A stretch of DNA of 64,000 bases from a bacterium (GTDB taxonomy: Bacteria; Arandabacterota; Arandabacteria; Arandabacterales; JALGWA01), in contig JASFEA010000002.1 in assembly GCA_050125095.1 (NCBI GenBank), forward strand, positions 69 to 64,068, read 5' to 3'. The notes below the pieces were generated by a model, which was given only the letters and a program-made list of their open reading frames with translations, was not told the origin of the DNA and did not search any database. A program made the position numbers and the translations under genes. Numbering within the stretch: position 1 is the first letter of the stretch; each line of letters starts with the position of its first letter. Of this stretch, positions 6,383 to 62,275 are shown piece by piece.

Positions 6383-6474
6383 GGTCGCAAACTTCCCCAG
6401 TAGATATACTCCCGCACTGAATTACGGCAAGTTCCATGCCAGGCGGACCCCGGCGGCCCACATCCGTAAATGCC

Positions 6475-6484
6475 TGTATATAAT
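6475..6484 (+). promoter_or_regulatory. AT-rich -10-like element TGTATATAAT in the divergent sprA/lptF intergenic region (candidate lptFG promoter)
   Basis: A perfect TATAAT at 6479..6484 preceded by TGTA, which stands out in an otherwise GC-rich genome. It lies ~80 nt upstream of the lptF ATG at 6564. The -35 is weak (cccaca). Confidence 0.3.
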
Positions 6485-6563
6485 GGGCTTGCCCTCGGGG
6501 TCCATCTGGTGTAACTTGGCGTGGGGCCTGTTCATGTCCCTCTGGGGGACGCTTCTGTACAAA

Positions 6564-16741: not shown

Positions 16742-17115
16742 TTCGTGGGCTCTTCGTACTCCTCGACCATTTCGTCGAGATCTTCGTCCCCGGAATCCTC
16801 CACTACCTGGACTTCGGGCTTCCGGCCTTTCCGTTTTCTCACTTTGTCCTTGTGCTTCCGCACCTGCCGTTCCATCTTGCCTGCCGCCGCGTCAAAAGCG
16901 GCGAAGAGGTCCTCGGCGCGGGCTTCGGCGAAGAGGTCGAAGCCGTTGCCGTGCAGCGTGATTTCGAAGTCATATATGAAGCGCTCGACTTTGAGTATGA
17001 CATGGCATTCAATTAACTTGTCGAAGTACCGCGTGAGCTTGTTGAGTCTCTCTTCGACGTACTCCCTGACATTATCGGTTATCTCAAATGACTTCGAGGT
17101 GATTTCTATGCGCAT
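16738..17115 (-). CDS. hpf: ribosome hibernation promoting factor / sigma-54 modulation protein (RaiA/HPF)
   Basis: MRIEITSKSFEITDNVREYVEERLNKLTRYFDKLIECHVILKVE… matches the HPF/YfiA family N-terminal domain. It sits downstream of rpoN as in many proteobacteria. Confidence 0.88.
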   Translation of the reverse strand: MRIEITSKSFEITDNVREYVEERLNKLTRYFDKLIECHVILKVERFIYDFEITLHGNGFDLFAEARAEDLFAAFDAAAGKMERQVRKHKDKVRKRKGRKPEVQVVEDSGDEDLDEMVEEYEEPTK

Positions 17116-17981
17116 CGCTGCCTCCTCAGATTCGCATCTATATAGGCCTCGCCTGCGAGGTAAGAACTCCTGACCCTCGGACCGGCCACGGCGACCAGCC
17201 CGAGTCCCTCCCCATGGCGTCTGAGCTCCTCAAACTCATCCGGGGCGTAGTACCTGTCCACGGGATGGTGTTTTCTGGAGGGCCGCATGTATTGCCCTAT
17301 GGTCACTATATTGCATCCGGCGTCCCTCAGGTCCCCCAGCGTGCTTCTCACCTCCTCGACGGTCTCGCCAAGGCCCACCATGAGCCCCGACTTCACCATC
17401 ACGTCCGGGAACCCGCTTGCCACCACATGCAGTATTTCCAGAGAACGACTATAGTCCGCCCCGTCCCGGATATAGGGAAAGAGCCTCTCAACCGTTTCGA
17501 TATTGTGAGCGAAGACCTCCGCTCCCGATGCGGCGACCGTCTCGACCGGTCCGCGCGCCCCCCTGAAGTCGGGAACAAGCGTCTCCACAACGGGCGCTCC
17601 GTCCAGCTCCTTTATCGCCCTGACGCAATCCGCGAAATGGGCTGCCCCGCCGTCCGCCAGGTCGTCTCTCGTCACCGAGGTCAGCACGACGTATTTCATC
17701 CCGAGCGCGGCGCAGGCCTCCTTGAGACGAAGCGGCTCCGACGGGTTCAACTCGTCGGGGGGCTCGCTCGAGACGTTACAGAACCTGCAGCGCCTGGTGC
17801 AGTTCTTTCCGAGAAGAAGAAAACTCACCGAGCCCACGCTGAAGCAATGCTCCTTGTTGGGGCATCTCGCCTCGAAGCAGATGGCGTGGAGCCCGGCGGC
17901 CGTCACGCTGCGGTGTATGGGCGCAAGCGCCGTCAGGTCCGGCAGTTTGGTCTTGAGCCAATCGGGAATACGCCCTGCCAA
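17106..17981 (-). CDS. lipA: lipoyl synthase
   Basis: Radical-SAM motif CTRRCRFCNV plus the N-terminal auxiliary-cluster cysteines (CPNKEHC); 291 aa. Confidence 0.88.
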   Translation of the reverse strand: MAGRIPDWLKTKLPDLTALAPIHRSVTAAGLHAICFEARCPNKEHCFSVGSVSFLLLGKNCTRRCRFCNVSSEPPDELNPSEPLRLKEACAALGMKYVVLTSVTRDDLADGGAAHFADCVRAIKELDGAPVVETLVPDFRGARGPVETVAASGAEVFAHNIETVERLFPYIRDGADYSRSLEILHVVASGFPDVMVKSGLMVGLGETVEEVRSTLGDLRDAGCNIVTIGQYMRPSRKHHPVDRYYAPDEFEELRRHGEGLGLVAVAGPRVRSSYLAGEAYIDANLRRQRCA

Positions 17982-29369: not shown

Positions 29370-30917
29370 TCATGTCTTAATGAGGTGGGACAGGTCCTCT
29401 CCCGTCTTGGAGGACCGCACCAGGACTTCGTCTCTCTTGAGGTTGGGGTCGTCCTTCACGTCTATTTCCATCTTGAAGCGCCTCTCCAGTCGTATTATCC
29501 GGTAGGCGCTCTCTGAGAGCATATGGAAGGCCACTTCGGGGTTCAAGAAGACCTCGATCCGCTTCTCGCGGCAACGCGCCCTCAGGCGCCTCAAGTGCCT
29601 CTCCACCCTCCCCTCTATGGACTTGAGAGACAGCACCCGCCCCGATCCCCCGCAGGTCGGGCAGGTCTCGCCCAGAAGCTGCAGGAGCGACGGCCGCACG
29701 CGCTGCCTGGTCATCTCCACCAGCCCTATCTCGCTCACCCTCAGTGTCTTGGTCCTGGAGCGGTCGCGTTTGAGGCCGGCCCGGAGCTCGTCGATGACCT
29801 TCTTGCGGTTTTCCTCCATCTCCATGTCGATGAAGTCTATCACTATGATGCCGCCGAGATCGCGGAGCCGGAGCTGCCGCGGGACCTCCTTGGCGGCCTC
29901 GAGATTGGTCCTCAAGGCTGTGTCCTCCTGGCCCTTGCCGCCCCTGAACCTGCCGCTGTTGACGTCTATGGAGACCAGCGCCTCGGTGTGGTCGATTGTG
30001 ATGAAACCGCCCTTCTTGAGCGGGACCGTCCTCGATAGCAGCCTCCCGGTCTCTCTCTCGATCTCGTAGGCGTCGAATATGGGCGTGTCCTCGCGGTACA
30101 AATGTACACGGTCCCTGAGGCCGGGAGCGTAGGAGCGCAGATAGGACTGAATCTCCTTGTACTCCTTCTTGGAGTCTATGGCCACGCTGGTGACCTCGTC
30201 CGTAAACAGGTCCCTCACCAGCCGCGTGATGATCTCCATGTCCTTGTGGATGAGGCAGGGCGCCGGGTTCTTCTCGCCCTTCTTCTCCAGCCTGCGCCAC
30301 AGTTTCTTCAGGAACTTGGCGTCCGACGCGAACTGCTTCTTCTCCATGCCCTCGCCGGCCGTGCGCACTATGATGCCCATATCTTCCGACTTCAGGGGGC
30401 TCACGATTTCCTTGAGCCGGCGGCGCTCATCGCGGTCCTCTATCTTCCGCGACACGCCCACCAGTTCGGCGCCGGGCATGAGCACCAGGTACCTTCCCGG
30501 AAGCGATATCTGCGAGCTCACGCGGGGGCCTTTGTTGCCGATCGGCTCCTTGGTGATCTGGACCAGGATCTGGTCGCCTTTTTTGAGCAGCTGCTCTATG
30601 AGCACTTCCCTGTCGCGGGGGGCCGGGGTCGAATCGTATTCGCCGCCGCCCTCATACCTCTCGTCTATGTCTTCATAGTCCGACACGTCAACGCTCATGT
30701 CCGAGACATGGAGGAAGGCGCTCTTCTCGCATCCTATGTCGAGAAACGCGGCCTGCATGCCCGGAAGCACAGCCGTGACTCTGGCCTTGTGTATGTCGCC
30801 GACCCCGATTCTCTCGCCGGATCTCGCCACCATGTACTCGACCAGCTGGCCGCCTTCCTTGATGCCGATGCGAGTCTCAATGGGCTCGACGTTTATGATT
30901 ATCTCTCTGTTTATCAT
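29370..30917 (-). CDS. rng: ribonuclease G/E family endoribonuclease
   Basis: 515 aa. N-terminal S1 domain, the DNase I-like catalytic core, and a zinc-link CxxC region (CPTCGGSG). The size fits RNase G. Confidence 0.85.
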   Translation of the reverse strand: MINREIIINVEPIETRIGIKEGGQLVEYMVARSGERIGVGDIHKARVTAVLPGMQAAFLDIGCEKSAFLHVSDMSVDVSDYEDIDERYEGGGEYDSTPAPRDREVLIEQLLKKGDQILVQITKEPIGNKGPRVSSQISLPGRYLVLMPGAELVGVSRKIEDRDERRRLKEIVSPLKSEDMGIIVRTAGEGMEKKQFASDAKFLKKLWRRLEKKGEKNPAPCLIHKDMEIITRLVRDLFTDEVTSVAIDSKKEYKEIQSYLRSYAPGLRDRVHLYREDTPIFDAYEIERETGRLLSRTVPLKKGGFITIDHTEALVSIDVNSGRFRGGKGQEDTALRTNLEAAKEVPRQLRLRDLGGIIVIDFIDMEMEENRKKVIDELRAGLKRDRSRTKTLRVSEIGLVEMTRQRVRPSLLQLLGETCPTCGGSGRVLSLKSIEGRVERHLRRLRARCREKRIEVFLNPEVAFHMLSESAYRIIRLERRFKMEIDVKDDPNLKRDEVLVRSSKTGEDLSHLIKT

Positions 30918-33442
30918 GCAATCCTCGCTCTGAACCCCGTAAGGGGCGAATAAAGTGTTCCGGCCCTGTCCACGTAAAGGGCCTTTCGGTTCACCTTGAG
31001 ACGCAGCTCCCCGGTCGCAAGATGCTCGGACAGCACCTTGTCCGGACGTACGCCCTTACCTTTCAGTCTCACGGTGGCCGCAATCTCCAGTTTATTATTC
31101 TCAACATCGCCCGCCTTGAAGTCAATAAGATTACCGCTGGCCTCCATGGCGTCCCTGAGCACGTCGGCCTGCCCGGCAAGGAGCCCGGAGTCTTCGCTCC
31201 AAAGCCGTATCGCGTAAGCCGCGGCGTTGACGCTCGCCATCAGCGACGGCGCCGATTTCTCTATCAAGTTGCCCTCCAGGGCTTCGAGGCCTTCCGGCAG
31301 GCATTTATTGAGCCGGTCGAGCCAGCCTTCGCCCGGCGCCTCCGAGAGGAGCGCGTCGAAGTACTCAGCCTCCCCGGTCTCCCCGAGGGGCAGCGGCGGC
31401 CCGAAGGCTATTCGCGGATGCGGCGAGAAACCCTGTGAATAGGCCACACCTATATCGGCCCGCCTCATGCCCCGCTGCACCGCCCTGGTCACGTCAAGAT
31501 GGGACGTGAGCCGCATGGGGTCACACTTGGCGAATCTCACCCTGAAACGCATGGACATGACGGGCGCAGCACCAGCGGAAACGTCCACCGCGCTATTCGC
31601 AGCGCTGCCCGCCGAGCTGCCCGCCGGGCTACCCGCCGAGCTCTTCCCCGCCAGCGGCGGCACGCCGGGCCTCGGACGTTCGCCGCACGCGCCGCAGTCC
31701 GTGCACTGGCCTTCGCGGCAATCGGGGGTGAGTTCGCCCGCGGCGGCCCTGTCGCGTTCACTCTCCAGGAAGGCCCGGCTCACTCCCGCGTCCACATGGT
31801 CCCAGGGCAGCTGCACGTCCGCGGGCCTCGCCCCGAGCTCGCCGGCGATATCGACCCCGCATTCGCCCAGGGCGCGTTTCCAGAGGTCGAAGTCAAACGA
31901 ATCCGTCCAGCCGTCGAAACGCGCGCCCATGCGGTAGGCCGCCATTATGCAGCGCGACAGGCGGCTGTCTGCGCGCGCGAGCAGGCCTTCGAGCACCGAA
32001 ACCCAGGGGTCGCGCCACTTGATCTTGATCCTGCCCTCGGGCAGGCGCTTCTTCATCAGCGAGAGCTTCGCAAGAACGCTCTCAGCGCCCTCCTGCTCTT
32101 CCCATTGAAACGGCGTGTGCGGCCGCGGCACGAAGGGGGACAGGGACACGGTCACCCGCTTGCGCCTGCCGTACCCGCGGCATATGGTCTCAACCCCTCG
32201 CACCATCTTGATTATGGCCTCGACGTCGGCCATGTCCTCCCCCGGCAGGCCCAGCATGAAATACAGCTTCATCGACTCCCAGTCGTTCCTGAATGCCGTT
32301 TCCACCGTCGAATAGAGTTCGCTTTCGTCGATGTTCTTGTTTATCGCGCGCCTCAGCCCGGAGCTCCCCGCCTCGGGCGCGAAGGTCAGGCCCGTCTTCT
32401 TGATGCCGCCTATTATCTCGGCTATCTCCTCGGTAAACGTACCCGGGCGCATAGAGGGGAGGGATATGCTGACCCGTCTCTTCCCGAGGGCGCCGGCCAG
32501 CCCGGCCACCAGGCTCTTGAGATCGCAGTAGTCCGAAGTGGAAAGCGAAACCAGCGAGACCTCTTCCCAACCGCTCGCCGCTATCCCCTCCTCGGCAAGC
32601 CGCACTATGGAGTCGACGCTGCGCTGCCTTACCGGCCGCCCGGTCATGCCGGCGGAGCAGAACCTGCAGCCCCTTGTGCAGCCTCGCATTATCTCTATGG
32701 AGAGCCTGTCATGCGTGATCGGTATGAGGGGCACAATCGGCTTAAGGGGAAAATGCTCGTCCTTGAGTTCCGGCTCAACGCGCCGCCTTACGCTTGCCGC
32801 CGGCGGCGTCAGGCCGTGAACGGCGGGCACGTAGACGCCGTCTATCCCGGCGAGGCGCTCCACCGTTCGCGCGCGCGTAAGCCCCTCTTCCCTCGCCCTC
32901 AGCACCGCCGCCGCGATTTCGACGCATACCGTCTCGCCGTCCCCTATGGCGAAGGCGTCGACGAACGCCGACATGGGAGCCGGGTTGGACGCGCTGGGCC
33001 CGCCGGCGACCACCACCGGGTCCCCGTCCACCCGCGCTCCCGACTCCAGGGCTACTCCTGCCAGGTCCAGCATTGCGAGCACGTTGGTATACTGGAGCTC
33101 GTGCTGCAGCGAGAAACCCAGCACATCGAAATCGCGCGCGGCAAGCCCCGTACCCAGCCCGTAAAGCGGCATCCCTCGCGCCCCCATGAACTCGGCCATG
33201 TCGTTCCAGGGCGCGAAAGCCAGGTCGGCCATGAAGTCCTCATGGCCGTTGAGAACGTGGTAGAGGATACGTATCCCGAGGTGGGACATGCCGATTTCAT
33301 AGAGGTCCGGGAAGAGGATGAGGAACTTCAGCCGCCCGCCAGACTTTCGCGGGAAATTGATTTCGTTGTTGAAGTACCGTCCCGGTTTGCGGACGCGCTG
33401 GAGCATCTCCGAGATGGTCGCGTCACTGAACCTCGTGACCAA
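30914..33442 (-). CDS. radical SAM protein (TIGR03960-like, B12-binding-like N-domain) fused to a DUF2344 (TIGR03936-like) C-domain
   Basis: 842 aa with radical-SAM cysteines CTRGCRFC. A Ser/Ala/Gly/Pro linker (GKSSAGSPAGSSAGSAANS) is encoded by a 3x12-nt tandem repeat at 31603..31638. The C-terminal half (RFRVRFAKCDPMRLTSHLDVTRAVQRGMRRADIGVAYSQGFSPHPR…) resembles DUF2344. The gene overlaps rng by 4 nt, the widely conserved pairing. Confidence 0.7.
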   Translation of the reverse strand: MVTRFSDATISEMLQRVRKPGRYFNNEINFPRKSGGRLKFLILFPDLYEIGMSHLGIRILYHVLNGHEDFMADLAFAPWNDMAEFMGARGMPLYGLGTGLAARDFDVLGFSLQHELQYTNVLAMLDLAGVALESGARVDGDPVVVAGGPSASNPAPMSAFVDAFAIGDGETVCVEIAAAVLRAREEGLTRARTVERLAGIDGVYVPAVHGLTPPAASVRRRVEPELKDEHFPLKPIVPLIPITHDRLSIEIMRGCTRGCRFCSAGMTGRPVRQRSVDSIVRLAEEGIAASGWEEVSLVSLSTSDYCDLKSLVAGLAGALGKRRVSISLPSMRPGTFTEEIAEIIGGIKKTGLTFAPEAGSSGLRRAINKNIDESELYSTVETAFRNDWESMKLYFMLGLPGEDMADVEAIIKMVRGVETICRGYGRRKRVTVSLSPFVPRPHTPFQWEEQEGAESVLAKLSLMKKRLPEGRIKIKWRDPWVSVLEGLLARADSRLSRCIMAAYRMGARFDGWTDSFDFDLWKRALGECGVDIAGELGARPADVQLPWDHVDAGVSRAFLESERDRAAAGELTPDCREGQCTDCGACGERPRPGVPPLAGKSSAGSPAGSSAGSAANSAVDVSAGAAPVMSMRFRVRFAKCDPMRLTSHLDVTRAVQRGMRRADIGVAYSQGFSPHPRIAFGPPLPLGETGEAEYFDALLSEAPGEGWLDRLNKCLPEGLEALEGNLIEKSAPSLMASVNAAAYAIRLWSEDSGLLAGQADVLRDAMEASGNLIDFKAGDVENNKLEIAATVRLKGKGVRPDKVLSEHLATGELRLKVNRKALYVDRAGTLYSPLTGFRARIA

Positions 33443-39372: not shown

Positions 39373-39909
39373 ATGTTAAGGATAACGCTTGCTTGCCTTT
39401 TGGCGGTTGCTTTCCTCGCTTCTTACGCCCACGCCACTGACCCCGTGTCGCCGCCCCCTGATGATAAGGACCCCATTCGCTCCCGCCAGGAGCAGCAGAT
39501 GCACGATGAGGCCCAGACCCGGTCCGGCACCGCTCTGCCCTTCCCGAGGCAGTTCATCATGGGACAGGTCAGGGACTCCGGAGGTATCGGTATTGGCGGA
39601 ACAACGGTCAAGCTCTTCGCGGACGGGGTGTTTGTGGAAGAGGACCGCACCAATTCGTCGGGCGAGTTCGAGCTCAACCTGCCCCTCAATATCGAGACGG
39701 ATGAGACGGTAGTGTTGTGGGTGGTGCCACCAACCGACCGGTATGCCATGCAATGCGTCGTCATCAAGAAGAGCGAGGTCGCCAGAAACAGCCGCCTGTT
39801 CGGCCCATGCGCCATAGAGGTCGAGATGAAGGAGCAGATGCGGGTGGAAGTCGCGCTGCTCACGCCGGATGAGCTGCTGCAGTCCGTCAGGGCGAGGGGC
39901 TGCTACTAG
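39373..39909 (+). CDS. secreted protein with carboxypeptidase-regulatory-like (transthyretin-like) domain
   Basis: Start at ATG 39373 with AGGAGG 6 nt upstream. Signal peptide MLRITLACLLAVAFLASYAHA. Domain motif GQVRDSGGIGIGGTTVKLFADGVFVEEDRTNSSGEFEL. Confidence 0.6.
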   Translation: MLRITLACLLAVAFLASYAHATDPVSPPPDDKDPIRSRQEQQMHDEAQTRSGTALPFPRQFIMGQVRDSGGIGIGGTTVKLFADGVFVEEDRTNSSGEFELNLPLNIETDETVVLWVVPPTDRYAMQCVVIKKSEVARNSRLFGPCAIEVEMKEQMRVEVALLTPDELLQSVRARGCY

Positions 39910-40014
39910 GCCTTCGGGCGGGAGGCTATCACCTTCGTCCATCGGTTGATGGAATCGCTCTAATCTATTGCTATATAAAGGATTAGTGCATCTTCACTCT
40001 GGCCTGCCCGCGCT

Positions 40015-40665
40015 TTACAACTCCTCTTCCCTATCGGCCTGCGGCATGAGGAGGGCGATGAGGAGATATACGATAAGCCCGATTCCCCTCGACAGTATGA
40101 TGAAAAGCGCCAGCACGAATCTTACGATATTGGGATCGACGTTGAAGTACTCACCCAGCCCGCCGCAGACGCCCAGGATCATGCGGTCTTCGGTCGAGCG
40201 CCGGAAGGGCGTTCTCTGGCCGGAGGTCTCCCGCCAGTACATGTAGATGAGGAATCCGCCTCCCCCTATCAGGCACAGCGGCCAGAGGACGCTGAAGGCG
40301 ACTCCCCAGGGGTCCCAGATGCTGAAGGTCATTACGCCTACGAAGCGAAGCACGATCACGGCGCCGATACAGACCAGTATTATCCCGGATATGAGAAAGC
40401 CCGTCCCTCGCCTCGGTGCGGCCCGCACCTCCACCCGCCCCTCTCCCCGCGGGAAAAGATACATGCCCAGCAGATACGCCAGTACGCCTATGCCGCCGGC
40501 CAGCGCCAGCGCGGCCCAGGCTATGCGCACCCACAGCGGGTCGATGCCCGCATAGGCTGCCGCCCCGCCGCAGACGCCGTCGATGATGCGGCCTTCCCTT
40601 ACTTTGAATATCTTCTTCGGACCGGCCAGTTTGCGCCTCCTTGTCTCGGTCAGTACGCCAAACAT
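40015..40665 (-). CDS. membrane protein with two PspC domains (phage-shock protein C family)
   Basis: Two copies of the PspC signature followed by TM helices: KKIFKVREGRIIDGVCGGAAAYAGIDPLWVRIAWAALAL and FRRSTEDRMILGVCGGLGEYFNVDPNIVRFVLALFIIL. Confidence 0.75.
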   Translation of the reverse strand: MFGVLTETRRRKLAGPKKIFKVREGRIIDGVCGGAAAYAGIDPLWVRIAWAALALAGGIGVLAYLLGMYLFPRGEGRVEVRAAPRRGTGFLISGIILVCIGAVIVLRFVGVMTFSIWDPWGVAFSVLWPLCLIGGGGFLIYMYWRETSGQRTPFRRSTEDRMILGVCGGLGEYFNVDPNIVRFVLALFIILSRGIGLIVYLLIALLMPQADREEEL

Positions 40666-40757
40666 CTAGCATCGGCCCGGTGCCAAGTCAAGCTATTCCA
40701 CCACGGGGGCCAAAAGGCCTGCTTCAGGCTCCGGCCGGCGCCGGAACGTCACGGCCT

Positions 40758-42149
40758 CTAGCCGTGGAGCGGTCTGCCCGCCGAGCCCTGGGCGGCTTCC
40801 CAGACGATCTCCGACATGGTCGGATGGGGATGTATTACCCGCGCCACCTCTTCCGCCGTGAGGCCCCCCGCCATAGCAGTGGAGACTTCCGAGAGAAGCT
40901 CGGAAGCGTGCGGCGCCAGGAGATGAAAACCTATTACCCTGCCCGTCTGCTTGTCGCAGGTCATCTTGGCCAGGCCGAAGGTCTCACCCAGCGTCAGCGC
41001 CCGGCCGACTCGCCCCAGCTGGACCTTGTACACGGACGCCTCGATGCCCGCTTCCGCGGCCTCCGCCTCCGTCATGCCCACGGCCGCGTACTCAGGGCTG
41101 GTGAAGACGCAGCGCGGAACCGCCGCGTAGTCGATTTCGGAATCAACGCCACATGCGTTCTCAGCTGCCACGACGCCCTGGGCGCTCGCAACATGCGCCA
41201 GCATGAACTTGCCAGTTACGTCGCCTATGGCGTAGATGCCGGTAACGCCGGTGCGCATACGCTTATCCACCGCTATGCGCTTGCCGTCTAGGTCAACACC
41301 CGCCTGCTCCAGGCCCAGGCCCGCAGTGCTCGGCGCTCTGCCCACGGCCACCATTATTTTCTCGGCCTCAATGGCCTTGCCGTCCTCGGTAAGCAATCTG
41401 AGCGGCCCTCTGCCCCTCTCAAGGCCGGTCACGCGCGTCTTCGAGGCCACCCCGATGCCTTTGCGCTTGAGCGCGGCCTCGAGCCTCCTCGCCAGCTCGG
41501 CGTCCTCCCCGGGAAGGAGCTGGGGCATCATCTCGACTATTGTGGTCTCGATACCCAGCGCGCTGTATATCTCGGCGAATTCGCAGCCTACCGCCCCGCC
41601 CCCCACTATGGCAATGCTGCCTGGCAGGTCGTCCAGCGCGAAGGCGTCATCGCTGGTGATTACGCGGTCGCCGTCGGTCTCGAGCCCGGGGAGCTCGATC
41701 CACTCGGATCCCGTCGCTATTATGACGGCCCCGCATTCAAGCGTTAGGGTGCCCCCGGCGGTATCCACCCCCACCTTATCGGGTCCCAGCAGCGCCCCGC
41801 TACCCCTGATAAGCCTGACCCCGGCGTGAGACAGGAGGTCCTCGACCCCCTTTCGCATGGTCTCCACCACGCCCCTGGAGCGTGACGCGATCACGGAGGC
41901 GTCGAACCTCACGTCGCCGACGCTTATGCCGAACTCCCGCGAACCGGAAATGGCGCGCAAGAGGCCCGTGCTGGCCAGCAGGGCCTTTGTGGGTATGCAG
42001 CCCCTGTTGAGGCAGGTGCCGCCTACTACATCTTTCTCTATCACGGCGACCGAGGCCCCGAGGCCCGCTGCCCTCAGGGCGGATACATAGCCGCCCGGCC
42101 CGGCGCCTATTACCGCTACATCAACGCGCTCGTCACTCAACGCCCGCAA
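40758..42149 (-). CDS. lpdA: dihydrolipoyl dehydrogenase (E3)
   Basis: 463 aa. FAD motif VIGAGPGG, redox-active disulfide GGTCLNRGCIPTKALL, NAD-binding GGGAVGCEFA, and the C-terminal HPHPTMSE interface motif. Confidence 0.85.
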   Translation of the reverse strand: MRALSDERVDVAVIGAGPGGYVSALRAAGLGASVAVIEKDVVGGTCLNRGCIPTKALLASTGLLRAISGSREFGISVGDVRFDASVIASRSRGVVETMRKGVEDLLSHAGVRLIRGSGALLGPDKVGVDTAGGTLTLECGAVIIATGSEWIELPGLETDGDRVITSDDAFALDDLPGSIAIVGGGAVGCEFAEIYSALGIETTIVEMMPQLLPGEDAELARRLEAALKRKGIGVASKTRVTGLERGRGPLRLLTEDGKAIEAEKIMVAVGRAPSTAGLGLEQAGVDLDGKRIAVDKRMRTGVTGIYAIGDVTGKFMLAHVASAQGVVAAENACGVDSEIDYAAVPRCVFTSPEYAAVGMTEAEAAEAGIEASVYKVQLGRVGRALTLGETFGLAKMTCDKQTGRVIGFHLLAPHASELLSEVSTAMAGGLTAEEVARVIHPHPTMSEIVWEAAQGSAGRPLHG

Positions 42150-43008
42150 TCCCCCCCGCTTTGACCTTGTGCATGTCCAGCCCCAGTTCGGAGGCCGTCC
42201 CGCCCATGGCCAAACACAAGAGCTGGCTTAGGTAGAAAACAGGCAGACCATACTTCCTGCCCGTCTTGCGCTCGAGAAGCGTCTGGCCGACGTCGAACTG
42301 CTCGAAGCAGAACGGGCAGGCCAGCACTATCGCCTGGGCGCCGGCTTCCTTCATTGCGCTGAGCTTGCGCTCCAGTATGCCCGTTGAAGTCTCCTCGTCC
42401 AGCGATGGCCTTCCGCAGCACAGGTACTTGTCTTCATAGGTTATAGACTCGGCCCCCACAAGAGCCACAAGCTCGTCCAGGCATCTCGGCTTCTCGGGGT
42501 CGTCGAAATCGACCGCACCCGAGGGCCGCGTAAGATGGCAGCCGTAGTGACAGGCTATTCTGAGGCCGTCAAGCCTCCTCTTCACCCCGGCCGCTATCTC
42601 TTTCATGCGCTCCTCATCGAAGAGAATCTCGAGAAAGTGCGATACCGGCGGGAGGTTGAGGTCCAGCCCGAGTTTCCCGATGCGCGCCGCGGCGTCCGTG
42701 CGCGACCCGGGATCCTCCGAAAGAAGATGCCTGGCCTCCGAAAGAGATGAAGCGCAGCCCGGGCAGAGCGTCACGATGGGCTTCTCGCCGTCCAGAGACA
42801 GGTTGCGGGCCGCCAGGCTCAGCCAGTCGCTCCTCGATGAGGATCTGAACACCACGGGATCGGGGCAGCAGGTGAAGCGTGCATCATCCTCCAGGCCGAT
42901 CCCCAGGCTCTCCAGGACCCGCCTCACCGAAACCTCGATATGAGGCAGTTTGGTCCTTGCGAGGCAGCCGGGGAAAAAGCGGTAGGCGGATGCGCGGTTT
43001 TCACTCAT
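42133..43008 (-). CDS. heterodisulfide reductase subunit B-like protein (two CCG cysteine-rich domains)
   Basis: 291 aa with two CCG-type domains (…CCPDPV…CPGC… and …CHYGCH…YLCCGRPSL…CPFCFEQF). It overlaps lpdA by 17 nt and the HdrC-like gene by 8 nt. Confidence 0.6.
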   Translation of the reverse strand: MSENRASAYRFFPGCLARTKLPHIEVSVRRVLESLGIGLEDDARFTCCPDPVVFRSSSRSDWLSLAARNLSLDGEKPIVTLCPGCASSLSEARHLLSEDPGSRTDAAARIGKLGLDLNLPPVSHFLEILFDEERMKEIAAGVKRRLDGLRIACHYGCHLTRPSGAVDFDDPEKPRCLDELVALVGAESITYEDKYLCCGRPSLDEETSTGILERKLSAMKEAGAQAIVLACPFCFEQFDVGQTLLERKTGRKYGLPVFYLSQLLCLAMGGTASELGLDMHKVKAGGIAGVE

Positions 43009-43465
43009 GGCCCGTAATCAACCCCAGTTCTTTTGCGTCGCCGGGCTCCGCCGCGGGGAGGCCCATCTTCTCTCTCAATTCCATGGCGCGCCGGGTGAGC
43101 GCGCCGGCCACTCCCTTCTCGATAACGCTCCGGCGTATGTTGGCCACGCCCTCGGGAGAGGTCCCCTCGCGGAAGCTCAGGTTTCTGAGCGCTATGATGA
43201 CTTCGAGCGGCTTGACACCGGCGGGGCAGCGCTCATGGCAGGTATAGCAGGTGGTGCATTTCCAGATCGGCGATTCCCGGCCCACCAGTTCCCGGCCTAT
43301 TCCCAGGCATACCCTGAGAAAGATCTGCCTCGGATTGAAATCATCCGAGAACCTGGCCGCCGGGCAATCACCCACGCAGATGCCGCAGGAATAACAGAGC
43401 CTGGCCAGCTCCCGCCCGCCGATTATGTCTATTTCCTCACTGGTTGCGCTTCCTACCGTATGCAT
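43001..43465 (-). CDS. heterodisulfide reductase subunit C-like 2x[4Fe-4S] ferredoxin
   Basis: 154 aa with CYSCGICVGDCP and CTTCYTCHERCP motifs. Confidence 0.6.
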   Translation of the reverse strand: MHTVGSATSEEIDIIGGRELARLCYSCGICVGDCPAARFSDDFNPRQIFLRVCLGIGRELVGRESPIWKCTTCYTCHERCPAGVKPLEVIIALRNLSFREGTSPEGVANIRRSVIEKGVAGALTRRAMELREKMGLPAAEPGDAKELGLITGHE

Positions 43466-43548
43466 TGCACTTCATATCTACCATAATCGGCAGCGCAGGA
43501 CAACAGCGGATTTCGCCCGGGAAGGTTACAAGCAAGGGGTCAGGGGAA

Positions 43549-43725
43549 GGGGTCAGGTCTGAAAATGCACATTGTGCATAAGGAAGGGGTCAGGTCTTGG
43601 TTGCACAATACCCTCGACGCGAATGCGAAGGCGTTCCGCCGAGGCTCCGTGTTGTAAAGAAGCCACCGGCGGAATGCCGAGCAAACCGCAGGGCCGGCCA
43701 TTGTGCAACCAAGACCTGACCCCCA
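43549..43725. repeat. structured intergenic repeat element, copy 2
   Basis: Mini-palindrome GGGGTCAGGTCTGAAAATGCACATTGTGCAT (43549..43579). Left arm GGGGTCAGGTCTTGGTTGCACAAT (43587..43610), a core ~90% identical to copy 1, and right arm ATTGTGCAACCAAGACCTGACCCCC (43700..43725). The arm interior differs from copy 1 (GGTTGCACAAT vs AAATGCACA) but stays complementary to its own partner. Confidence 0.8.
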
Positions 43726-43734
43726 GGAGAGAAA

Positions 43735-44721
43735 CTACCATCTCAATCTCATGGAGATCCTGTGGACGCCGCTGAAGACGCCGAACTCGGTATAAGCGTA
43801 GTCGACGGCGGTGGCGCCGAAGGACGTGTCCAGCTTGACGCCGGCGCCGCCTGATATGCCCATTTCCTCCGCGTTGGTGGTATAGCCCATCCTCACGAAC
43901 ACGGTGTTGTTCCAGCCGTATTCGCCGCCGAGGTGAACCCGCTCGGAGTAATCGGTAGGATGGGTGGCGTCCAGGGCCATGGTGAGCACGCTGTTCTGGC
44001 CGAATTCCCAATCGTAGGCAATGCCCAGCCGGAAGTTGAGGGGCAGGTCATTGCTCCCGAACATGCGCACTTCCTCTATATGCGATGTGCCTATGTAGTA
44101 CTTGTCTGTATACGACCCGTCGTAAACGAGGTCCGGGCCGAAGTTGGTGGTCGCCATCGCCAGCCTGAGCGAGTTAAATCCGGTGTGGTATACCGTGCCG
44201 AAGTCAAAGGCGACTCCCCTGGCGCTGTAGTCGTAGATCGACTGGTCGATGTATTTGAACGTTCCCCCGACATAGAGCATGTCGGTCCACCTCTTGGCGT
44301 ATGTGAAACCGACGGCTATGTCCCGGGCCGTGAAGGTGCCGGAGGCCTCAGTGGAGGAGTGCTCGCTCACCAGCTGCATTTCGCCGTAATCGGCCGTAAG
44401 AACGCTGAACGCGAAAGTGCCGAGCTCTTTGTACTTGAAAGCATAGGCACCGCCTATGAGCCTGACGTCAGCCAGCCATTCGGCATCGCTCACGAAGACT
44501 TCATCCCCGTCCAGGCCCGCCAGCCCGGCCGGGTTGCTGAACACCGAGGGCGCGCCCCAGACGCTGGCAGCATAGGCCTCGCCCATGGCCACTCCCCTCG
44601 AATCTATGCCTATCTTAAGAAACAGGGCGCTGGAACTTCCCACCTTGTCAACGGCCGCTGACGCAGTGCCGGCGCCCGCGAGCAGGGCACATATAGCGGC
44701 CAGCGCGATCGTCTTCCTCAT
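43735..44721 (-). CDS. FadL-fold outer-membrane beta-barrel, PorV/PorP-like (T9SS-associated candidate), module 1
   Basis: 328 aa. Signal peptide, N-terminal motif KVGSSSALFLKIGIDSRGVAMGEAYAA…SNPAGLA (shared by FadL/PorV-type barrels), and a C-terminal aromatic residue (…RLRW). It is a paralog of 59138..60115 and sits directly downstream of a T9SS-CTD protein. Confidence 0.5.
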   Translation of the reverse strand: MRKTIALAAICALLAGAGTASAAVDKVGSSSALFLKIGIDSRGVAMGEAYAASVWGAPSVFSNPAGLAGLDGDEVFVSDAEWLADVRLIGGAYAFKYKELGTFAFSVLTADYGEMQLVSEHSSTEASGTFTARDIAVGFTYAKRWTDMLYVGGTFKYIDQSIYDYSARGVAFDFGTVYHTGFNSLRLAMATTNFGPDLVYDGSYTDKYYIGTSHIEEVRMFGSNDLPLNFRLGIAYDWEFGQNSVLTMALDATHPTDYSERVHLGGEYGWNNTVFVRMGYTTNAEEMGISGGAGVKLDTSFGATAVDYAYTEFGVFSGVHRISMRLRW

Positions 44722-44741
44722 GGTCAGGTCCTCCTTAGGTT

Positions 44742-46625
44742 TTATCGGTCACCACGTATGACTGCAAATTTGCCTATTGCTTCACCGTACTCGTCGCTCA
44801 CGACCCTGTAGATGTATATACCGCTCGCTATCGACATGTTGTTGTAGGTCAGCATGTCCCATCTCTCGCCGCCGGTCTCGCTCCCCTCGGTGTCGGGCGT
44901 CTCATCACCCGGCATATTGTGGTAGATGGTGCTTACGAGCTCGCCGGTAAGCGAATAGACGAATATGGAGCAGCGCTTGGGCAGGTTCTGGAACATGATG
45001 GTGCCCTCGAAGTCGCTCCTCTCCCAGTCGGCGCTCCCCCTGTAAGGATTGGGAGCCACGAGTATATTGTCGAGCGCGCGGGACTTCCTGCCCGCCATGC
45101 ATTCTTGCATGCATCTCTCATAGCATTCGTCACAGCCCTGGCAGTGCTCCGTGCAGTCGTACTCGCAGTCGCCGCTCCAGTCTGTGGGAAGCGTGGTGGC
45201 GACCACCCCGGTGAGGGTCTTTACGTCCCAGGCGCCCTTGGTGGTCTCGTTCTCATTGCTGTCATAGGCGGTTACGCAGTAGAAGGCCGGGAATCCGATC
45301 TTTACCGTATCAAGCGCGGCGTTTACGTAGGGCCTGCCGCTGTAGTCCCGGATCAGGTCCCAGGGACCCGTGTTGGAGACATAGCTCTTGTAGACCCTGT
45401 AGCCGGCGAAATCGGCGTCCTCTTCCGAGTCCGATTCCCACTCGAGGCTGACCAGCGTGCCCTCGAGAAGAGGCTCCTCGAGCACGGGGGCGCTGGGCGC
45501 CGGGTCGTCCACCTGGAGGCCGTTTGCGTAGAGGTGGCGCACCGCGTCCACGTGATCGACCAGCGTGCCCATATCAGACGCTCCGGCCCCGATCCTCCTC
45601 CAGTAATCGGCGTCGAAACCCTGCCCGAAGACAATGGCCATATAGAAGGTGGCCTCGTCCCCGGCCCGGGCCTCATAGGGGCCGACCGCGCTCAATATCC
45701 TGTAATCAAAAGGCGTGTCCGGCGGGTATTCCCTGATGGTCCCCGAGGAGATCCTGTCATAGGCGGCTGCGTGGCCGGTGGCGTCATTGTTCCAGTCCCA
45801 CCAGGTGAACGTCTCCCAGGTCGTCGACGGCGTGGGCGCCTCGGTCACCGAACCGCCCGGGGGCGGCGCGGAAAGGAGGATCTGGCCCACGTGCTGCGCC
45901 GAGAGGAGGCCGCTCGACGGATCGTCTATGATCGCCGGGTCGCCGTCATCGTCGTACATGTAGGCGATATCTCTTGTCTCGTCGTAGGCCGTCAGATCGT
46001 CATAGTAATAATCCTTGAGGCTGTTGTTGCCTATATCGCAGTCGGTCATCCAGCCCCACCAGTAGTGGTTGAGGTCCTTGGAAAATTCCAGGTCGACTTT
46101 GATGACTATGAAGTCGTCGTAGCGAGGGTCCTCCCACATCATATAGCGGGTGGTTACCTTCACGCCGAGGTCGCGCGGCGAATAGCCCGTGTCGAACTCG
46201 CTCTCGACATCCAGGTTGCTCTGGCCGGGGCTGGCGAAGGCGAAACCGCTGCAGACCGAATCGTAGATGTAGAAGTCGAGCTGGTCGAACGTGGCAGCGG
46301 CCACCCAGGGGTCTCCGGCCTCGTTCTCGTCGGCATAGCCGCCCATCCAGATGCCCGACTGGAAGACCTGCTGGTCCTGGCTCGCGCCCGGGTAATAGCC
46401 CGAATAGAGAGCCAGCCCGATGCTGTAGACCCCGGGATACCAGAGGTCGCCTATGGTATAGCTGGAGGTCACGCCGACACAGCTGGTCGGGGACGCCGTT
46501 CCCCCCAGGATCGCCGGCGCTTGACTCCCGAACTCCGCGATTACCGCCTCGTCGTAGGCCAGCGCCGAGTGGCCCGTCGCAAACAGCGCGAGCAGCACAA
46601 CCGCAATCCTCATGCTCAATCTCAT
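44742..46625 (-). CDS. secreted protein with C-terminal T9SS type-A sorting domain (Por_Secre_tail/FlgD-Ig-like), FN3-like region and Cys-rich insert; module 1 cargo
   Basis: 627 aa with a signal peptide. The C-terminus (ILVAPNPYRGS…FQNLPKRCSIFVYSLTGELV…RWDMLTYNNMSIASGIYIYRVV…GKFAVIR) fits the type-A CTD consensus. An FN3-like stretch (GYRVYKS…FYCVTAYD) is present. A 10-Cys cluster DCEYDCTEHCQGCDECYERCMQECM lies at ~45100..45190. It is a paralog of 60141..62255. Confidence 0.65.
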   Translation of the reverse strand: MRLSMRIAVVLLALFATGHSALAYDEAVIAEFGSQAPAILGGTASPTSCVGVTSSYTIGDLWYPGVYSIGLALYSGYYPGASQDQQVFQSGIWMGGYADENEAGDPWVAAATFDQLDFYIYDSVCSGFAFASPGQSNLDVESEFDTGYSPRDLGVKVTTRYMMWEDPRYDDFIVIKVDLEFSKDLNHYWWGWMTDCDIGNNSLKDYYYDDLTAYDETRDIAYMYDDDGDPAIIDDPSSGLLSAQHVGQILLSAPPPGGSVTEAPTPSTTWETFTWWDWNNDATGHAAAYDRISSGTIREYPPDTPFDYRILSAVGPYEARAGDEATFYMAIVFGQGFDADYWRRIGAGASDMGTLVDHVDAVRHLYANGLQVDDPAPSAPVLEEPLLEGTLVSLEWESDSEEDADFAGYRVYKSYVSNTGPWDLIRDYSGRPYVNAALDTVKIGFPAFYCVTAYDSNENETTKGAWDVKTLTGVVATTLPTDWSGDCEYDCTEHCQGCDECYERCMQECMAGRKSRALDNILVAPNPYRGSADWERSDFEGTIMFQNLPKRCSIFVYSLTGELVSTIYHNMPGDETPDTEGSETGGERWDMLTYNNMSIASGIYIYRVVSDEYGEAIGKFAVIRGDR

Positions 46626-46640
46626 CTCATACCTCCGTGG

Positions 46641-49247
46641 CTAAAACACCAGACGAAATCCTGCGCGAATCTCCCTCGGTCCCCCGTAGACCTTCACGTT
46701 GTTATACGGGCCGGTCCACGTGCCGTAGAGCCGCAGATATCTCATGAGGTCCGTATTGTCGTCGTTGAAATTGACGAGGTTCTTCTTGTCAAAGAGGTTG
46801 TAGACCTCCAGGAACACCTGCTCCTTCTGGGTGAAGAGCTGGAAGTCTTTGGACAGCCTCATGTTGACCAGGGAGATGTCCGGGAATCTCGCAGTGTTCT
46901 GCTCTGGCTGCAGCGACCTCGTTGCCTCGGTCGGCGTGTAAGGAGATCCCGTTGCATACTTGACCAGGAAGTTGATGGCCCAGTTGTCCACCCTGCCGTA
47001 GCCGATGTCGAATACCAGGCTGTGCCTCCTGTCCCAATCAAGGTAATACTCTCTCGTGGCGGCTTGGGTGCCGTCGAAGAGCTGGTTGTAGCCTTCGACC
47101 ACGTCCGAACTCCGTCCCTTGCCTATCATGAACGTATAGATGACGCGCCCCATCCACGACTCCTTGAAGCGCTTCCTCAGCGTGAACTCGAACCCCCTGA
47201 CGTTGCCGTAGTCGGTGTTCATGTAAGTCGTGTACTGCGTTGCGTCGGCGGGGGTGTCGACGTCCCTGGAGTCGTTGATGGTAACCGTGGATACCAGGTT
47301 GTCGAGGTTCTTATAGAAACCGGTAATGTCTATGACCATGCCCTCGGCCACCACGCTCTCGATGCCGACCTCGTATGAGACGGTCTTCTCGGGCTGCAGG
47401 TCCGGGTTTCCAACGAGCGGCCAGTGGCCGCCCATGTCGTACTTGGTGTTGGTGTAGAGGTATCCGAACGGCGGCACCTGGAAGTAATGGCCGTAGGCGA
47501 AGTGAAGCACGGAGGACTCGCCCACCGGATGCGAAATACCGAGCCTGGGGCTTACCCTGGCCTTGGTCGCCGCGTCCGTAAGATTCCACAGCGGGGGCTC
47601 CGTCGCGTCCGGCCCGGCGCACTCGGGGCCGGGGACCTGGACGCTGGGGTCCCACGGATAGGTCTCGTCGGAGGGTATCTTCATGGCCGGGGCGAACACG
47701 TCAAGCCGGAGGCCCGCGTTCACGATCAGGCCGCTGTACTCGATCTTGTCCTGAGCGTAGGCCACCGCATAGGTCGGTCTCACGAGATACTGGTTCTTGT
47801 ATATGTTGCCCGGGGACGCGTACACCTCATGATGCCTCGTCTTGTACCTGGTGTACTCGCCGCCGAGCTTGAACTGGTGGCTGCTGTTGGCCTGCAATGT
47901 GTAGCTTCCCCGGATGCTGTTCACGGTCGACTCGGAGTCGTGGAAGAGATTGTTGTCGCCGCCTATGATGAAGTTGTCCTCATCGTATACGGTGTTGAGA
48001 TCGATCCCGCCGCCGCCGTCTTCGACGGGTGTGGTGTTCCACTCCTGGGACTGATTCATGTCCCACCACCTGCCGGGCTGCGCGACATGGTAATTGGTCT
48101 CGAAGCGCGAGAATGAAATATCATAATACGAGCTGGTGCTGACCATATGGTTCATGCCCAGCACGGCCGCGAGGCTCCACCTGTCGTAACCCAGAAACGT
48201 CTCAGGAACGTACTGGCGCTGTGCGTTCCAGACGCTGAACTGAGTGTCATAGAACAGACCCTCGAAATAGAGCTTCACCCCGCCCGCCGGGAATCCCGTG
48301 AACTTCCAGATGGCCTGGGTGCGGTCGCGCCACTGATTATCGAGCACGTGCACGCGCGGATCCCAGTCGTCCCACTTCGAAGATTCCACCGACATGAAGT
48401 ACTTGAGGTCCTGCGTCCATGGGCTGGGCCCGCTCAGGCTCAGGGTGGCGGTCCTGTAGCCGGTGTCGTACTTGCCGGCGTCGTCGGCCGATTCCCAGAG
48501 GCCCTCGATGGGAAGATAGAAAGCTGTGCCGAATTCCCCGCGGAACTCCTGCCCGCCCTCCTTGGACACGACATTTACGATGGCGCTCTGGGCGTTGCCG
48601 TACTCGGGGTTGTAGCCGCCGGTCAGGATCATCATCTCCTGAATCGAGGCTTCGTCGTACCCCGCTGCGGCCTGCGAGAAAATGGGATCGAGAATCGACG
48701 CGCCGTTGATGGTATAGGCGACTTCGTTCTCCCGGCCTCCCCTTATGTGTATGCCCCTGCGGTCGGTCGTCGCGCCCGCCTGGAAGGAGACTATGTCGAA
48801 GGGCGTCTCGACCGGAAGCATCTCGATCTCATCATGTTCTATGATATTGAGCGAAGAAGTCTTGTCCTTCCGGATCAGCGGCCTCTCGGCGGTGACCACG
48901 ATCTCCTCGACCACGTCGAGGACGGCGGGACTGAGTTCGAAGTCGATGCTGCTCGTAAAGTCCGCGTTGACCGAGGCATCCGCCTTCATGATGGTCTCGT
49001 ATCCCATCATCGCCGCCTTGACGCTATACGTCCCCGGCGGGACATTGACGATGTGATAGCGGCCCTCGGGATTGGTGATCGCCCCCATCGTCGTACCGTC
49101 CAGGGTCACATTGACGGCGACGAGCGGTTCGCCCGTGTCACTGTCGACCACGATGCCTGCGACTTTACCGGCAGTGCCCGCCCACAGCGTCAGGGCGCCG
49201 CCGAAAAGCACGAACGCAAAAACAGCTAACGCCAGCCTTCTACGCAT
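46641..49247 (-). CDS. TonB-dependent receptor with N-terminal carboxypeptidase-regulatory-like domain (SusC/RagA-like architecture), module 1
   Basis: Signal peptide. CarbopepD_reg-like domain (GKVAGIVVDSDTGEPLVAVNVTLDGTTMGAITNPEGRYHIVNVPPGTYSV), a plug domain, a long barrel, and a C-terminal …GFRLVF. Start likely ATG at 49247, preceded by GGAGGGG 8 nt upstream; the ORF track gives 49262. Confidence 0.8.
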   Translation of the reverse strand: MRRRLALAVFAFVLFGGALTLWAGTAGKVAGIVVDSDTGEPLVAVNVTLDGTTMGAITNPEGRYHIVNVPPGTYSVKAAMMGYETIMKADASVNADFTSSIDFELSPAVLDVVEEIVVTAERPLIRKDKTSSLNIIEHDEIEMLPVETPFDIVSFQAGATTDRRGIHIRGGRENEVAYTINGASILDPIFSQAAAGYDEASIQEMMILTGGYNPEYGNAQSAIVNVVSKEGGQEFRGEFGTAFYLPIEGLWESADDAGKYDTGYRTATLSLSGPSPWTQDLKYFMSVESSKWDDWDPRVHVLDNQWRDRTQAIWKFTGFPAGGVKLYFEGLFYDTQFSVWNAQRQYVPETFLGYDRWSLAAVLGMNHMVSTSSYYDISFSRFETNYHVAQPGRWWDMNQSQEWNTTPVEDGGGGIDLNTVYDEDNFIIGGDNNLFHDSESTVNSIRGSYTLQANSSHQFKLGGEYTRYKTRHHEVYASPGNIYKNQYLVRPTYAVAYAQDKIEYSGLIVNAGLRLDVFAPAMKIPSDETYPWDPSVQVPGPECAGPDATEPPLWNLTDAATKARVSPRLGISHPVGESSVLHFAYGHYFQVPPFGYLYTNTKYDMGGHWPLVGNPDLQPEKTVSYEVGIESVVAEGMVIDITGFYKNLDNLVSTVTINDSRDVDTPADATQYTTYMNTDYGNVRGFEFTLRKRFKESWMGRVIYTFMIGKGRSSDVVEGYNQLFDGTQAATREYYLDWDRRHSLVFDIGYGRVDNWAINFLVKYATGSPYTPTEATRSLQPEQNTARFPDISLVNMRLSKDFQLFTQKEQVFLEVYNLFDKKNLVNFNDDNTDLMRYLRLYGTWTGPYNNVKVYGGPREIRAGFRLVF

Positions 49248-49355
49248 AGTGCACCCCTCCATGAATCCGTTTTTGTGGTTTTTGCCTTACTGACTAAGCC
49301 CTTGATAAATATCGGCCAGAAATCGGAGGGGCTTGAGAAAAACCGGAGGGTTATA

Positions 49356-60115: not shown

Positions 60116-60140
60116 AGTACTCCTCCTTCCTTCCTCTCTC

Positions 60141-62255: not shown

Positions 62256-62275
62256 TGACCTGCCCTCCGTTGCGA

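Follow-up and report, generated by a model that had tools for sequence, protein, structure and literature searches.

The hdrC-hdrB-lpd triad and its products

A 64-kb stretch of a bacterial genome assembly (GenBank GCA_050125095.1, contig JASFEA010000002.1; hereafter, the window, taken at its full length) contains three overlapping genes on the minus strand that encode homologs of the HdrC and HdrB subunits of heterodisulfide reductase (Hdr) and a dihydrolipoyl dehydrogenase (Lpd), the enzyme known as E3 of the 2-oxoacid dehydrogenases and as the L-protein of the glycine cleavage system. The open reading frame (ORF) listing and the sequence reproduce the first two genes as the first-pass annotation of this DNA had drawn them, namely hdrC at 43001..43465 (154 aa) and hdrB at 42133..43008 (291 aa), with the hdrC stop and the hdrB start sharing the 8 nt ATGAGTGA (43001..43008). 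The ORF of the third gene, lpd (40758..42149), and its overlap with hdrB (within 42133..42149) are equally real, although the 17-nt extent claimed for this overlap is probably too long. There are two in-frame TTG candidate starts for lpd, at 42149 (463 aa, 17-nt overlap) and at 42140 (460 aa, 8-nt overlap), and the latter is probably the actual start because most Lpd homologs measure 460-461 aa; with this start, the junction reads TTGAGTGA, the same stop/start motif as between hdrC and hdrB. The choice between the two starts leaves the case for coupling untouched, given that the genes overlap with either TTG. To judge from the sequence, all three are real overlapping genes with intact catalytic motifs, and the translational coupling that had been proposed for them is borne out by the start/stop overlaps and by the tight junctions in related loci (see below).

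The HdrC-like protein contains the two expected 4Fe-4S motifs, both of the form CX2CX2CX3CP, at residues 24-35 and 70-81 (CYSCGICVGDCP and CTTCYTCHERCP, respectively), and matches Fer4 dicluster families of Pfam (Fer4_8/9/17). The closest solved structure is methanogen HdrC (7bkb_C, E = 3.5e-23), and the score against TIGR03290, the equivalog model of CoB-CoM HdrC, is 100.7 bits, below the cutoff of 160. The HdrB-like protein, for which two CCG domains had been predicted, does match PF02754 (CCG) in two stretches (E = 9e-26), each with the CXnCCXnCXXC set of cysteines. Ten cysteines (C15, C47, C48, C82, C85, C157, C197, C198, C231 and C234) remain unchanged across 26 sequences and are the predicted ligands of two non-cubane [4Fe-4S] clusters. 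The top-scoring model for this protein is TIGR03288, the equivalog model of CoB-CoM HdrB (240.4 bits, again below the cutoff, 345.15), and the closest solved structures are methanogen HdrB chains (8rvu_b, E = 4.6e-61). Because the scores of both proteins fall below the equivalog cutoffs, we predict that they are HdrB/HdrC-like and not bona fide subunits of the CoB-CoM reductase. The first-pass annotation had allowed for the CCG protein belonging to the LutA or GlcF clade instead. These proteins, LutABC/LldEFG and GlcF, along with GlpC, share the CCG-domain superfamily with the HdrB-like protein, and an identity with any of them was rejected in view of far lower model scores (64 bits for LdhH, 37 for GlcF and 19 for GlpC vs 240 for the HdrB model) and the methanogen HdrB chains being the nearest structures; no cognate LutB/LutC or GlcD/GlcE partner genes were found adjoining the triad.

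The subunits of the methanogen HdrABC complex (with MvhAGD or Fdh) thus appear to be the nearest structural relatives of the two proteins. The HdrB-like protein aligns end-to-end with HdrB of 8rvu and 5odc (E about 1e-58 to 1e-61), including both CCG motifs and the ten cysteines, and the HdrC-like protein matches HdrC of 7bkb and 5odc. The differences from methanogen HdrABC are that the HdrC-like protein is ~30 aa shorter, that both proteins score below the equivalog cutoffs, that no hdrA or mvh gene adjoins the triad, and that the loop following the second CCG motif is CCGRPSLDE as opposed to CCGAGGGVRSRD in methanogens. In the neighbor-joining tree, the HdrB-like protein belongs to a monophyletic clade with the signatures CCPDPVVF and CCGRPS[LMI]DE, the latter being a private loop beside the C-terminal CCG motif; in other bacterial and archaeal relatives, the corresponding loop is mostly CCG[KR]AC... 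Identity within this clade is at least about 45-50% and then drops to 37-46%.

The third protein scores well above the cutoff of the dihydrolipoyl dehydrogenase equivalog model (TIGR01350; 510 bits vs 408.8) and retains the FAD-binding GAGPGG15 and NAD-binding GGGAVG183 motifs, E206, the redox-active C46LNRGC51 and the His-Glu dyad of H440PHPTMSE447; the closest solved structure is the Thermus E3 (2eq6_A, E = 4.8e-98). It is predicted to be a normal NAD-linked dihydrolipoyl dehydrogenase, resembling in its model score and full set of catalytic motifs the L-protein of the glycine cleavage system and E3 of the 2-oxoacid dehydrogenases, and differing from these in that its gene lies away from the gcv genes, is coupled to hdrCB and belongs to a lineage-specific clade (at least 50% identity inside the clade, at most 48% to other Lpds). 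The window also encodes lipoyl synthase, as had been noted, at a position unlinked to the triad (lipA, 17106..17981, minus strand; 351 bits against TIGR00510, cutoff 310.25), and the presence of this gene indicates that the organism makes a lipoylated protein. The claim that the window lacks the E1 and E2 components of 2-oxoacid dehydrogenases and any lipoate-binding protein also holds: no E1, E2, GcvH or lipoyl-domain gene was detected among the ~55 ORFs scanned, and tblastn of the window with GcvH of E. coli and the lipoyl domain of AceF as queries yielded no match.

Conservation of the triad and alternative partners of HdrCB

Related loci were collected by contig look-ups, from one genome per GTDB species and in a scan of JGI metagenomes, and all were analyzed by tblastn. 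The hdrC-hdrB-lpd order is found in 25 further loci (L001, L004-L006, L008-L012, L014, L017, L019, L022-L025 and L028-L036), with HdrB identity of 50-99%, two of these loci being 99% identical to the window. In the 16 triad loci that were measured, the hdrB/lpd junction ranges from -14 to +5 nt, and the closest candidate hdrB start overlaps hdrC by 4-14 nt in all except L017, where the overlap is 26 nt. Furthermore, for 35 of the 76 HdrB-clade clusters, the longest contig is identical in size to that of an Lpd-clade cluster. Most of the triad loci share the entire flanking block that extends from a PorV-family gene through pspC to a 2-oxoacid:ferredoxin oxidoreductase (OFOR), but in L001 and L014 the triad is lodged between a gene for a GAF/histidine-kinase protein and a response regulator gene and, therefore, has moved as a unit. 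The lineage that carries the triad is 'Candidatus Arandabacterota' of the FCB superphylum (Gong et al. 2022), labeled Eisenbacteria in NCBI. We predict that the three genes are co-transcribed and translationally coupled, as an operon found in this one lineage only; the possibility that lpd is merely an adjacent gene with its own promoter is at odds with the lack of intergenic room for a promoter and with the tight hdrB-lpd junction in every triad measured. A full-text literature search turned up no description of an hdrCB-lpd operon.

Outside the triad, HdrCB pairs are followed or accompanied by other redox enzymes. In L002 and L003, hdrCB genes from within the same clade precede genes for ferredoxin, the alpha, beta and gamma subunits of OFOR, an HdrA-like protein of 1019 aa, MvhD and an HdrC/B-like fusion protein. 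In the tree, the HdrB of L002 branches from within the triad HdrB clade, and it is probably a paralogous copy because L002 belongs to the same assembly as the triad locus L025, at a similar coverage (32x vs 29x). In a Bathyarchaeia metagenome-assembled genome (MAG), the gene after hdrC-hdrB, overlapping it by 4 nt, encodes a 677-aa FdhA-like molybdopterin oxidoreductase, with fdhD located upstream (L015, 6492-9909), and the hdrCB-FdhA-like arrangement recurs in five further Bathyarchaeia loci (L038-L042); such loci possibly encode a formate-linked HdrCB that lacks HdrA. A planctomycetal HdrCB (L018, Planctomycetota, 37% HdrB identity) is followed by ferredoxin and OFOR, that of L020 is found with polyferredoxins, and that of L021 lies near an HdrA-like gene. 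Given that FdhA-like proteins, OFOR, polyferredoxins or HdrA-like proteins are the neighbors of these distant HdrCB pairs, HdrCB can be predicted to be a cassette that teams with varied redox enzymes. The loci with FdhA-like proteins (L015, L038-L042) and with ferredoxin-OFOR (L002, L018) resemble the triad in that a redox enzyme gene follows the HdrCB cassette, and differ in that their partners carry Fe-S clusters able to feed HdrC directly, whereas Lpd has none. The triad itself appears to represent a lineage-specific minimal HdrCB cassette, in which the conserved partner is the apparently only lipoamide dehydrogenase of the genome.

The array of L002 (7547-16876) is worth recording in its own right, with its 1019-aa HdrA-like fusion, MvhD (FlpD) and the HdrC/B-like fusion, which consists of 409 aa.

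A lipoyl group as the possible shared substrate

HdrB/HdrC-like genes are widespread in non-methanogenic anaerobes; to our knowledge, the thiol/disulfide substrates of their products are mostly not known. In the triad, an inventory of the lipoate-dependent enzymes of the host bears on this question. Four triad loci belong to MAGs assigned to 'Candidatus Arandabacterota' (Gong et al. 2022, PMC9727166), namely L006 (Meg22_1012_Bin_348 scaffold_72704), L008 (Meg22_46_Bin_89 scaffold_4642), L014 (M3-30_Bin_374 scaffold_1200) and L017 (Meg22_1214_Bin_137 scaffold_20273). In the per-gene table in the Supplementary Data of that work, the sole K00382 (lpd) entry of each of these MAGs is the gene on the triad scaffold; gcvT, gcvPA and gcvPB are listed on scaffolds other than that of the triad in all four, with no lpd listed there; and in three of the four, as well as in four further MAGs, gcvT and gcvPA lie on the same scaffold separated by a one-gene gap, the usual place of gcvH. 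For the four MAGs, the rows surveyed, which exclude those of K00658 (E2), hold no entry for aceE, pdhA, pdhB, DLAT or the E1 of 2-oxoglutarate dehydrogenase (OGDH). In a set of 30 related 'Joyebacterota' MAGs, which are not tied to particular loci, a single lpd is recorded in 28 and OGDH E1 in none (PMC13271369 Table S4). From these single-lpd listings, in which the glycine cleavage system is the only lipoate-dependent entry, the triad Lpd is most likely the only E3 of the cell, and the glycine cleavage system is the only evident lipoate-dependent system.

The retention of the triad across the lineage suggests, but does not prove, that a bacterial HdrB has its long-sought disulfide substrate in the lipoyl group carried by the H protein of glycine cleavage. 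In its broader form, the reading that we favor, albeit tentatively, is that HdrCB and Lpd have one dithiol/disulfide in common as their substrate, which would be a lipoyl arm, either that of GcvH or that of a different carrier; the more specific proposition that lipoyl-GcvH is the physiological disulfide of HdrB, with the H protein serving as a redox hub between ferredoxin or H2 and NAD(H), is rather doubtful. The first-pass annotation had guessed at a lipoylated carrier, and this guess gains indirect support from the four MAGs, in which the triad lpd is the only lpd listed and the glycine cleavage system the only lipoate-dependent system. We infer a shared lipoyl substrate, an electron partner for HdrC and a direction of electron flow, as follows. 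Lpd would be the L-protein of the glycine cleavage system, of which gcvT, the presumed gcvH, gcvPA and gcvPB are encoded elsewhere. HdrC would relay single electrons through its two [4Fe-4S] clusters, and HdrB would cleave or form the disulfide at its two non-cubane clusters in two one-electron steps via HdrC. HdrCB would then link the lipoyl group to the low-potential Fe-S pool, either ferredoxin reduced by the many 2-oxoacid:ferredoxin oxidoreductases or HdrA/Mvh, and Lpd would link the same lipoyl group to NAD(H) by hydride chemistry.

The midpoint potentials of NAD and ferredoxin are -320 mV and -450 mV or lower, respectively. That of lipoamide is about -290 mV (PMC6067878). Because of these potentials, the favorable direction would be from reduced ferredoxin through HdrCB to the dihydrolipoyl group and on through Lpd to NADH, and HdrCB and Lpd together would function as a ferredoxin (or H2):NAD+ oxidoreductase with lipoate as the mediator. 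Alternatively, dihydrolipoyl-GcvH might be used directly, in what would amount to a ferredoxin-driven glycine synthase. Should HdrA/Mvh feed HdrC, an H2-dependent bifurcation to ferredoxin and the lipoyl group would, by our own estimate, be near equilibrium but feasible. If the shared lipoyl substrate is correct, this would be the first defined HdrBC substrate outside methanogens and sulfur oxidizers, the role of lipoate as an Hdr electron mediator, which to date has been proposed for sulfur oxidizers only, would extend to anaerobic carbon and amino-acid metabolism, and a new route joining the ferredoxin and NAD pools would come to light; if it is not, the operon would remain useful as a marker of the lineage and would illustrate how HdrCB modules exchange their partners. 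The triad is a minimal, three-gene case in which the only conserved partner is an enzyme with a defined substrate (dihydrolipoyl groups), and in a genome with, seemingly, essentially one lipoyl protein system, the substrate question of a non-methanogen HdrB becomes testable.

The nearest described system is the sulfur-oxidizing Hdr-like (sHdr) complex with the lipoate-binding protein LbpA and dihydrolipoyl dehydrogenase (DLD). According to the published model, lipoamide bound to LbpA, a protein resembling GcvH, is reduced by the Hdr-like complex, after which NADH is formed by dihydrolipoyl dehydrogenase; sulfur-oxidizing archaea have a dld gene linked to the hdr cluster (PMC6067878). The likeness of the triad to the sHdr-LbpA systems of Hyphomicrobium, Aquifex and Sulfolobales lies in this pairing of an HdrB/HdrC-type module with a lipoyl protein and dihydrolipoyl dehydrogenase. 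The differences are that the triad consists of hdrC, hdrB and lpd only, with neither dedicated lipoate-assembly genes nor sulfur transferases, that its host is an anaerobic bacterium of an FCB lineage, and that the candidate lipoyl protein is an ordinary GcvH. The sHdr loci are defined as type I, shdrC1B1AHC2B2, and type II, shdrC1B1AHB3-etfAB-emo (PMC11094781). Membership of the triad in either type was considered and rejected: hdrA, hyp, hdrC2B2 or hdrB3, lbpA and DsrE/TusA genes are absent from the window and within 7-9 kb of the related loci. In place of a second HdrCB or an HdrB3, there is one hdrC and one hdrB, with the PorV-family gene and lpd/pspC as the neighbors; tblastn searches for lbpA-like GcvH/lipoyl genes were negative in the window and 27 loci, and the loci fetched later were re-checked; among the window ORFs scanned with Pfam, there is no HdrA, DsrE or TusA gene. 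Membership thus fails on every defining feature except the HdrCB-like pair, and the resemblance to sHdr systems pointed out by the first-pass annotation reduces to analogy, the more so as the lineage is described as anaerobic and fermentative or sulfur-reducing, not sulfur-oxidizing. The triad likewise departs from the bifurcating HdrABC complexes, with no linked HdrA in the 64-kb window or within 6-9 kb of any triad locus, although HdrA may be present elsewhere in the genome, and no CoM/CoB-related genes were seen within the window.

Several observations weigh against the reading that HdrCB and Lpd share a lipoyl substrate. There is no lipoyl-carrier gene beside the triad in the window or in 47 loci, including those from the metagenome scan (tblastn), so that the link to GcvH derives from genome-level inventories only, and these are incomplete: the MAGs are 75-98% complete, and gcvH is represented not by a listed gene but by a one-gene gap. 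Given that most of the triads sit in one syntenic block, their conservation may in part reflect shared ancestry rather than selection. In two loci, L026 and L027, hdrCB is lacking and lpd occupies its usual place, in a PorV-lpd-PspC block; the Lpds of these loci are nested inside the triad Lpd clade, as the sister group to those of L001 and L014, which points to secondary loss of hdrCB, and their retention of lpd indicates that Lpd works without HdrCB and that HdrCB is an accessory part. Furthermore, because L002 and L018 (ferredoxin and OFOR) and L015 (the FdhA-like protein) place electron donors after hdrCB, the position of Lpd suggests that it could supply electrons to HdrCB instead of sharing a substrate with it. 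Finally, HdrCB may belong to an Mvh-HdrA complex with another substrate because most of the related MAGs have HdrA along with a single hdrB2, and the triad MAGs have group 3c hydrogenases.

The last two of these points grow into explanations of their own. Under one of them, which is somewhat unlikely, the three genes are co-transcribed neighbors without a shared reaction, such that Lpd acts simply as the L-protein in glycine cleavage and HdrCB is the disulfide-reductase arm of an Mvh-HdrA complex that is encoded elsewhere and acts on a different substrate. All 30 'Joyebacterota' MAGs have at least one hdrA2, 24 of the 30 have exactly one hdrB2 (PMC13271369 Table S4), and an Mvh-HdrABC complex has been proposed for them (PMC13271369); the triad MAGs contain [NiFe] hydrogenases of groups 3c (Mvh-type) and 4g (PMC9727166); and both the largely single inherited block of synteny and the solitary lpd of L026 and L027 are in line with this explanation. 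It sits poorly, however, with the hdrB-lpd overlap or spacing of at most 5 nt retained over the range of HdrB identity from 50 to 99%, with the relocation of the triad as a unit in L001 and L014, with the presence, in the HdrA clusters, of a fused HdrC/B-like partner of their own (409 aa in L002, 440 aa in L021), and with the location of the lone lpd apart from the gcv genes that it supposedly serves. Under the other explanation, HdrCB and Lpd would form one complex in which Lpd replaces HdrA as the flavoprotein subunit for electron input, with electrons passing from NADH or dihydrolipoyl-GcvH through the FAD of Lpd and the HdrC clusters to HdrB, and a non-lipoyl disulfide or a persulfide/polysulfide as the target. 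The slot after hdrB is indeed held by electron donors in other loci, including the FdhA-like gene of L015 with its 4-nt overlap and the ferredoxin and OFOR genes of L002 and L018, and translational coupling suggests equimolar co-production. We consider such a complex unlikely: Lpd keeps all the features of a dithiol-oxidizing E3 (C46/C51, the His-Glu dyad and a TIGR01350 score above the cutoff), has the canonical length of 460-463 aa, without any extension or Fe-S domain, and is retained in L026 and L027, which lack hdrCB; moreover, we know of no E3 that passes electrons to a protein Fe-S cluster.

The prediction that the triad MAGs are anaerobic polysulfide or sulfur reducers (Gong et al., PMC9727166), which is compatible with a polysulfide target for such a complex, counts against a third explanation, a reduced version of sHdr-type sulfur oxidation, in which protein-bound sulfane sulfur would be oxidized with lipoate as the cofactor and Lpd would pass the electrons to NAD+. 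The adjacency of an Hdr-like module and dihydrolipoyl dehydrogenase fits this explanation, as does the dld linkage reported in archaeal sulfur oxidizers (PMC6067878). Nevertheless, neither the window nor any of the related loci encodes sHdrA, Hyp, sHdrC2B2 or B3, LbpA, the specific lipoate ligase along with LipS1/S2, or DsrE3/TusA/rhodanese sulfurtransferases; the HdrB-like protein scores best against the methanogen-type HdrB model, and sulfur oxidation by the triad appears highly improbable.

Upstream region and other genes of the window

The region immediately upstream of hdrC (43466..43585, minus strand) is the probable 5' end of the operon. Alignment with L005 and L006 reveals two conserved blocks, AAATCC..TGTTGT and TTGTGATAnATATGAAGTGCnATG, and the region includes repeats as well: a 16-mer similar to GGAAGGGGTCAGGTCT occurs as three direct copies a short distance upstream of hdrC (43532-43597), and its core (GGGGTCAG / CTGACCCC) occurs as a short inverted repeat at the equivalent place in L005 and L006. 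These repeats may function as an operator or terminate transcription of the preceding gene. A scan of 39900-44000 for sigma-70 promoters gave no matches, the consensus not covering FCB-type promoters; terminator predictions in the same interval were at chance level only, and an Rfam search of the hdrC upstream region returned no match.

Between the PorV-family gene and hdrC, there is a 138-nt hairpin (43586-43723), in which perfectly matched arms of 24 nt (GGGGTCAGGTCTTGGTTGCACAAT) enclose a 90-nt spacer and a second stem is nested; the hairpin is present in a single copy within the window and has no Rfam match. The 269-nt intergenic region as a whole has a folding energy of -118 kcal/mol (z = -6.3). 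The hairpin is shared with the 99%-identical loci L028 and L029 and with no other related locus, the intergenic regions of other loci being shorter by ~100 nt; it resembles a large terminator or a palindromic insertion peculiar to the species.

The window otherwise encodes housekeeping and envelope proteins. Upstream of the operon are genes for a TonB-dependent receptor, a 627-aa protein without an assigned function and the PorV-family protein; downstream are the PspC-domain membrane protein and, ~5 kb further, a VorB-type 2-oxoacid:ferredoxin oxidoreductase. In the two loci with lpd and no hdrCB, L026 (GCA_964356335; lpd at 6001-7383) and L027 (6001-7386), an extra gene for a 472-480-aa Fer4_5 polyferredoxin-like protein, which the triad loci lack, directly follows pspC. 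The upstream genes form a three-gene cassette that is found twice in the window (43735-49262 and 59138-63982) and combines a TonB-dependent receptor, a 627- or 704-aa protein and a PorV/PorQ-family protein. The 627-aa and 704-aa proteins are paralogs (24% identity, E = 4e-26) without a match in Pfam or NCBIfam, and the cassette at 43735-49262 is kept beside the triad in most of the related loci.

Elsewhere in the window, an 842-aa protein (30914-33442), encoded directly upstream of an RNase E/G gene (29370-30917), combines in one chain a B12-binding radical SAM protein (TIGR03960) and the partner that usually accompanies it (TIGR03936/DUF2344). A 2012-aa SprA-like type IX secretion protein is encoded at 344-6382, and the window additionally contains two PorV-like genes and encodes proteins with GWxTD domains or Por-secretion tails; the presence of these SprA-like, PorV-like and GWxTD or Por-secretion-tail proteins fits a host from the FCB superphylum.

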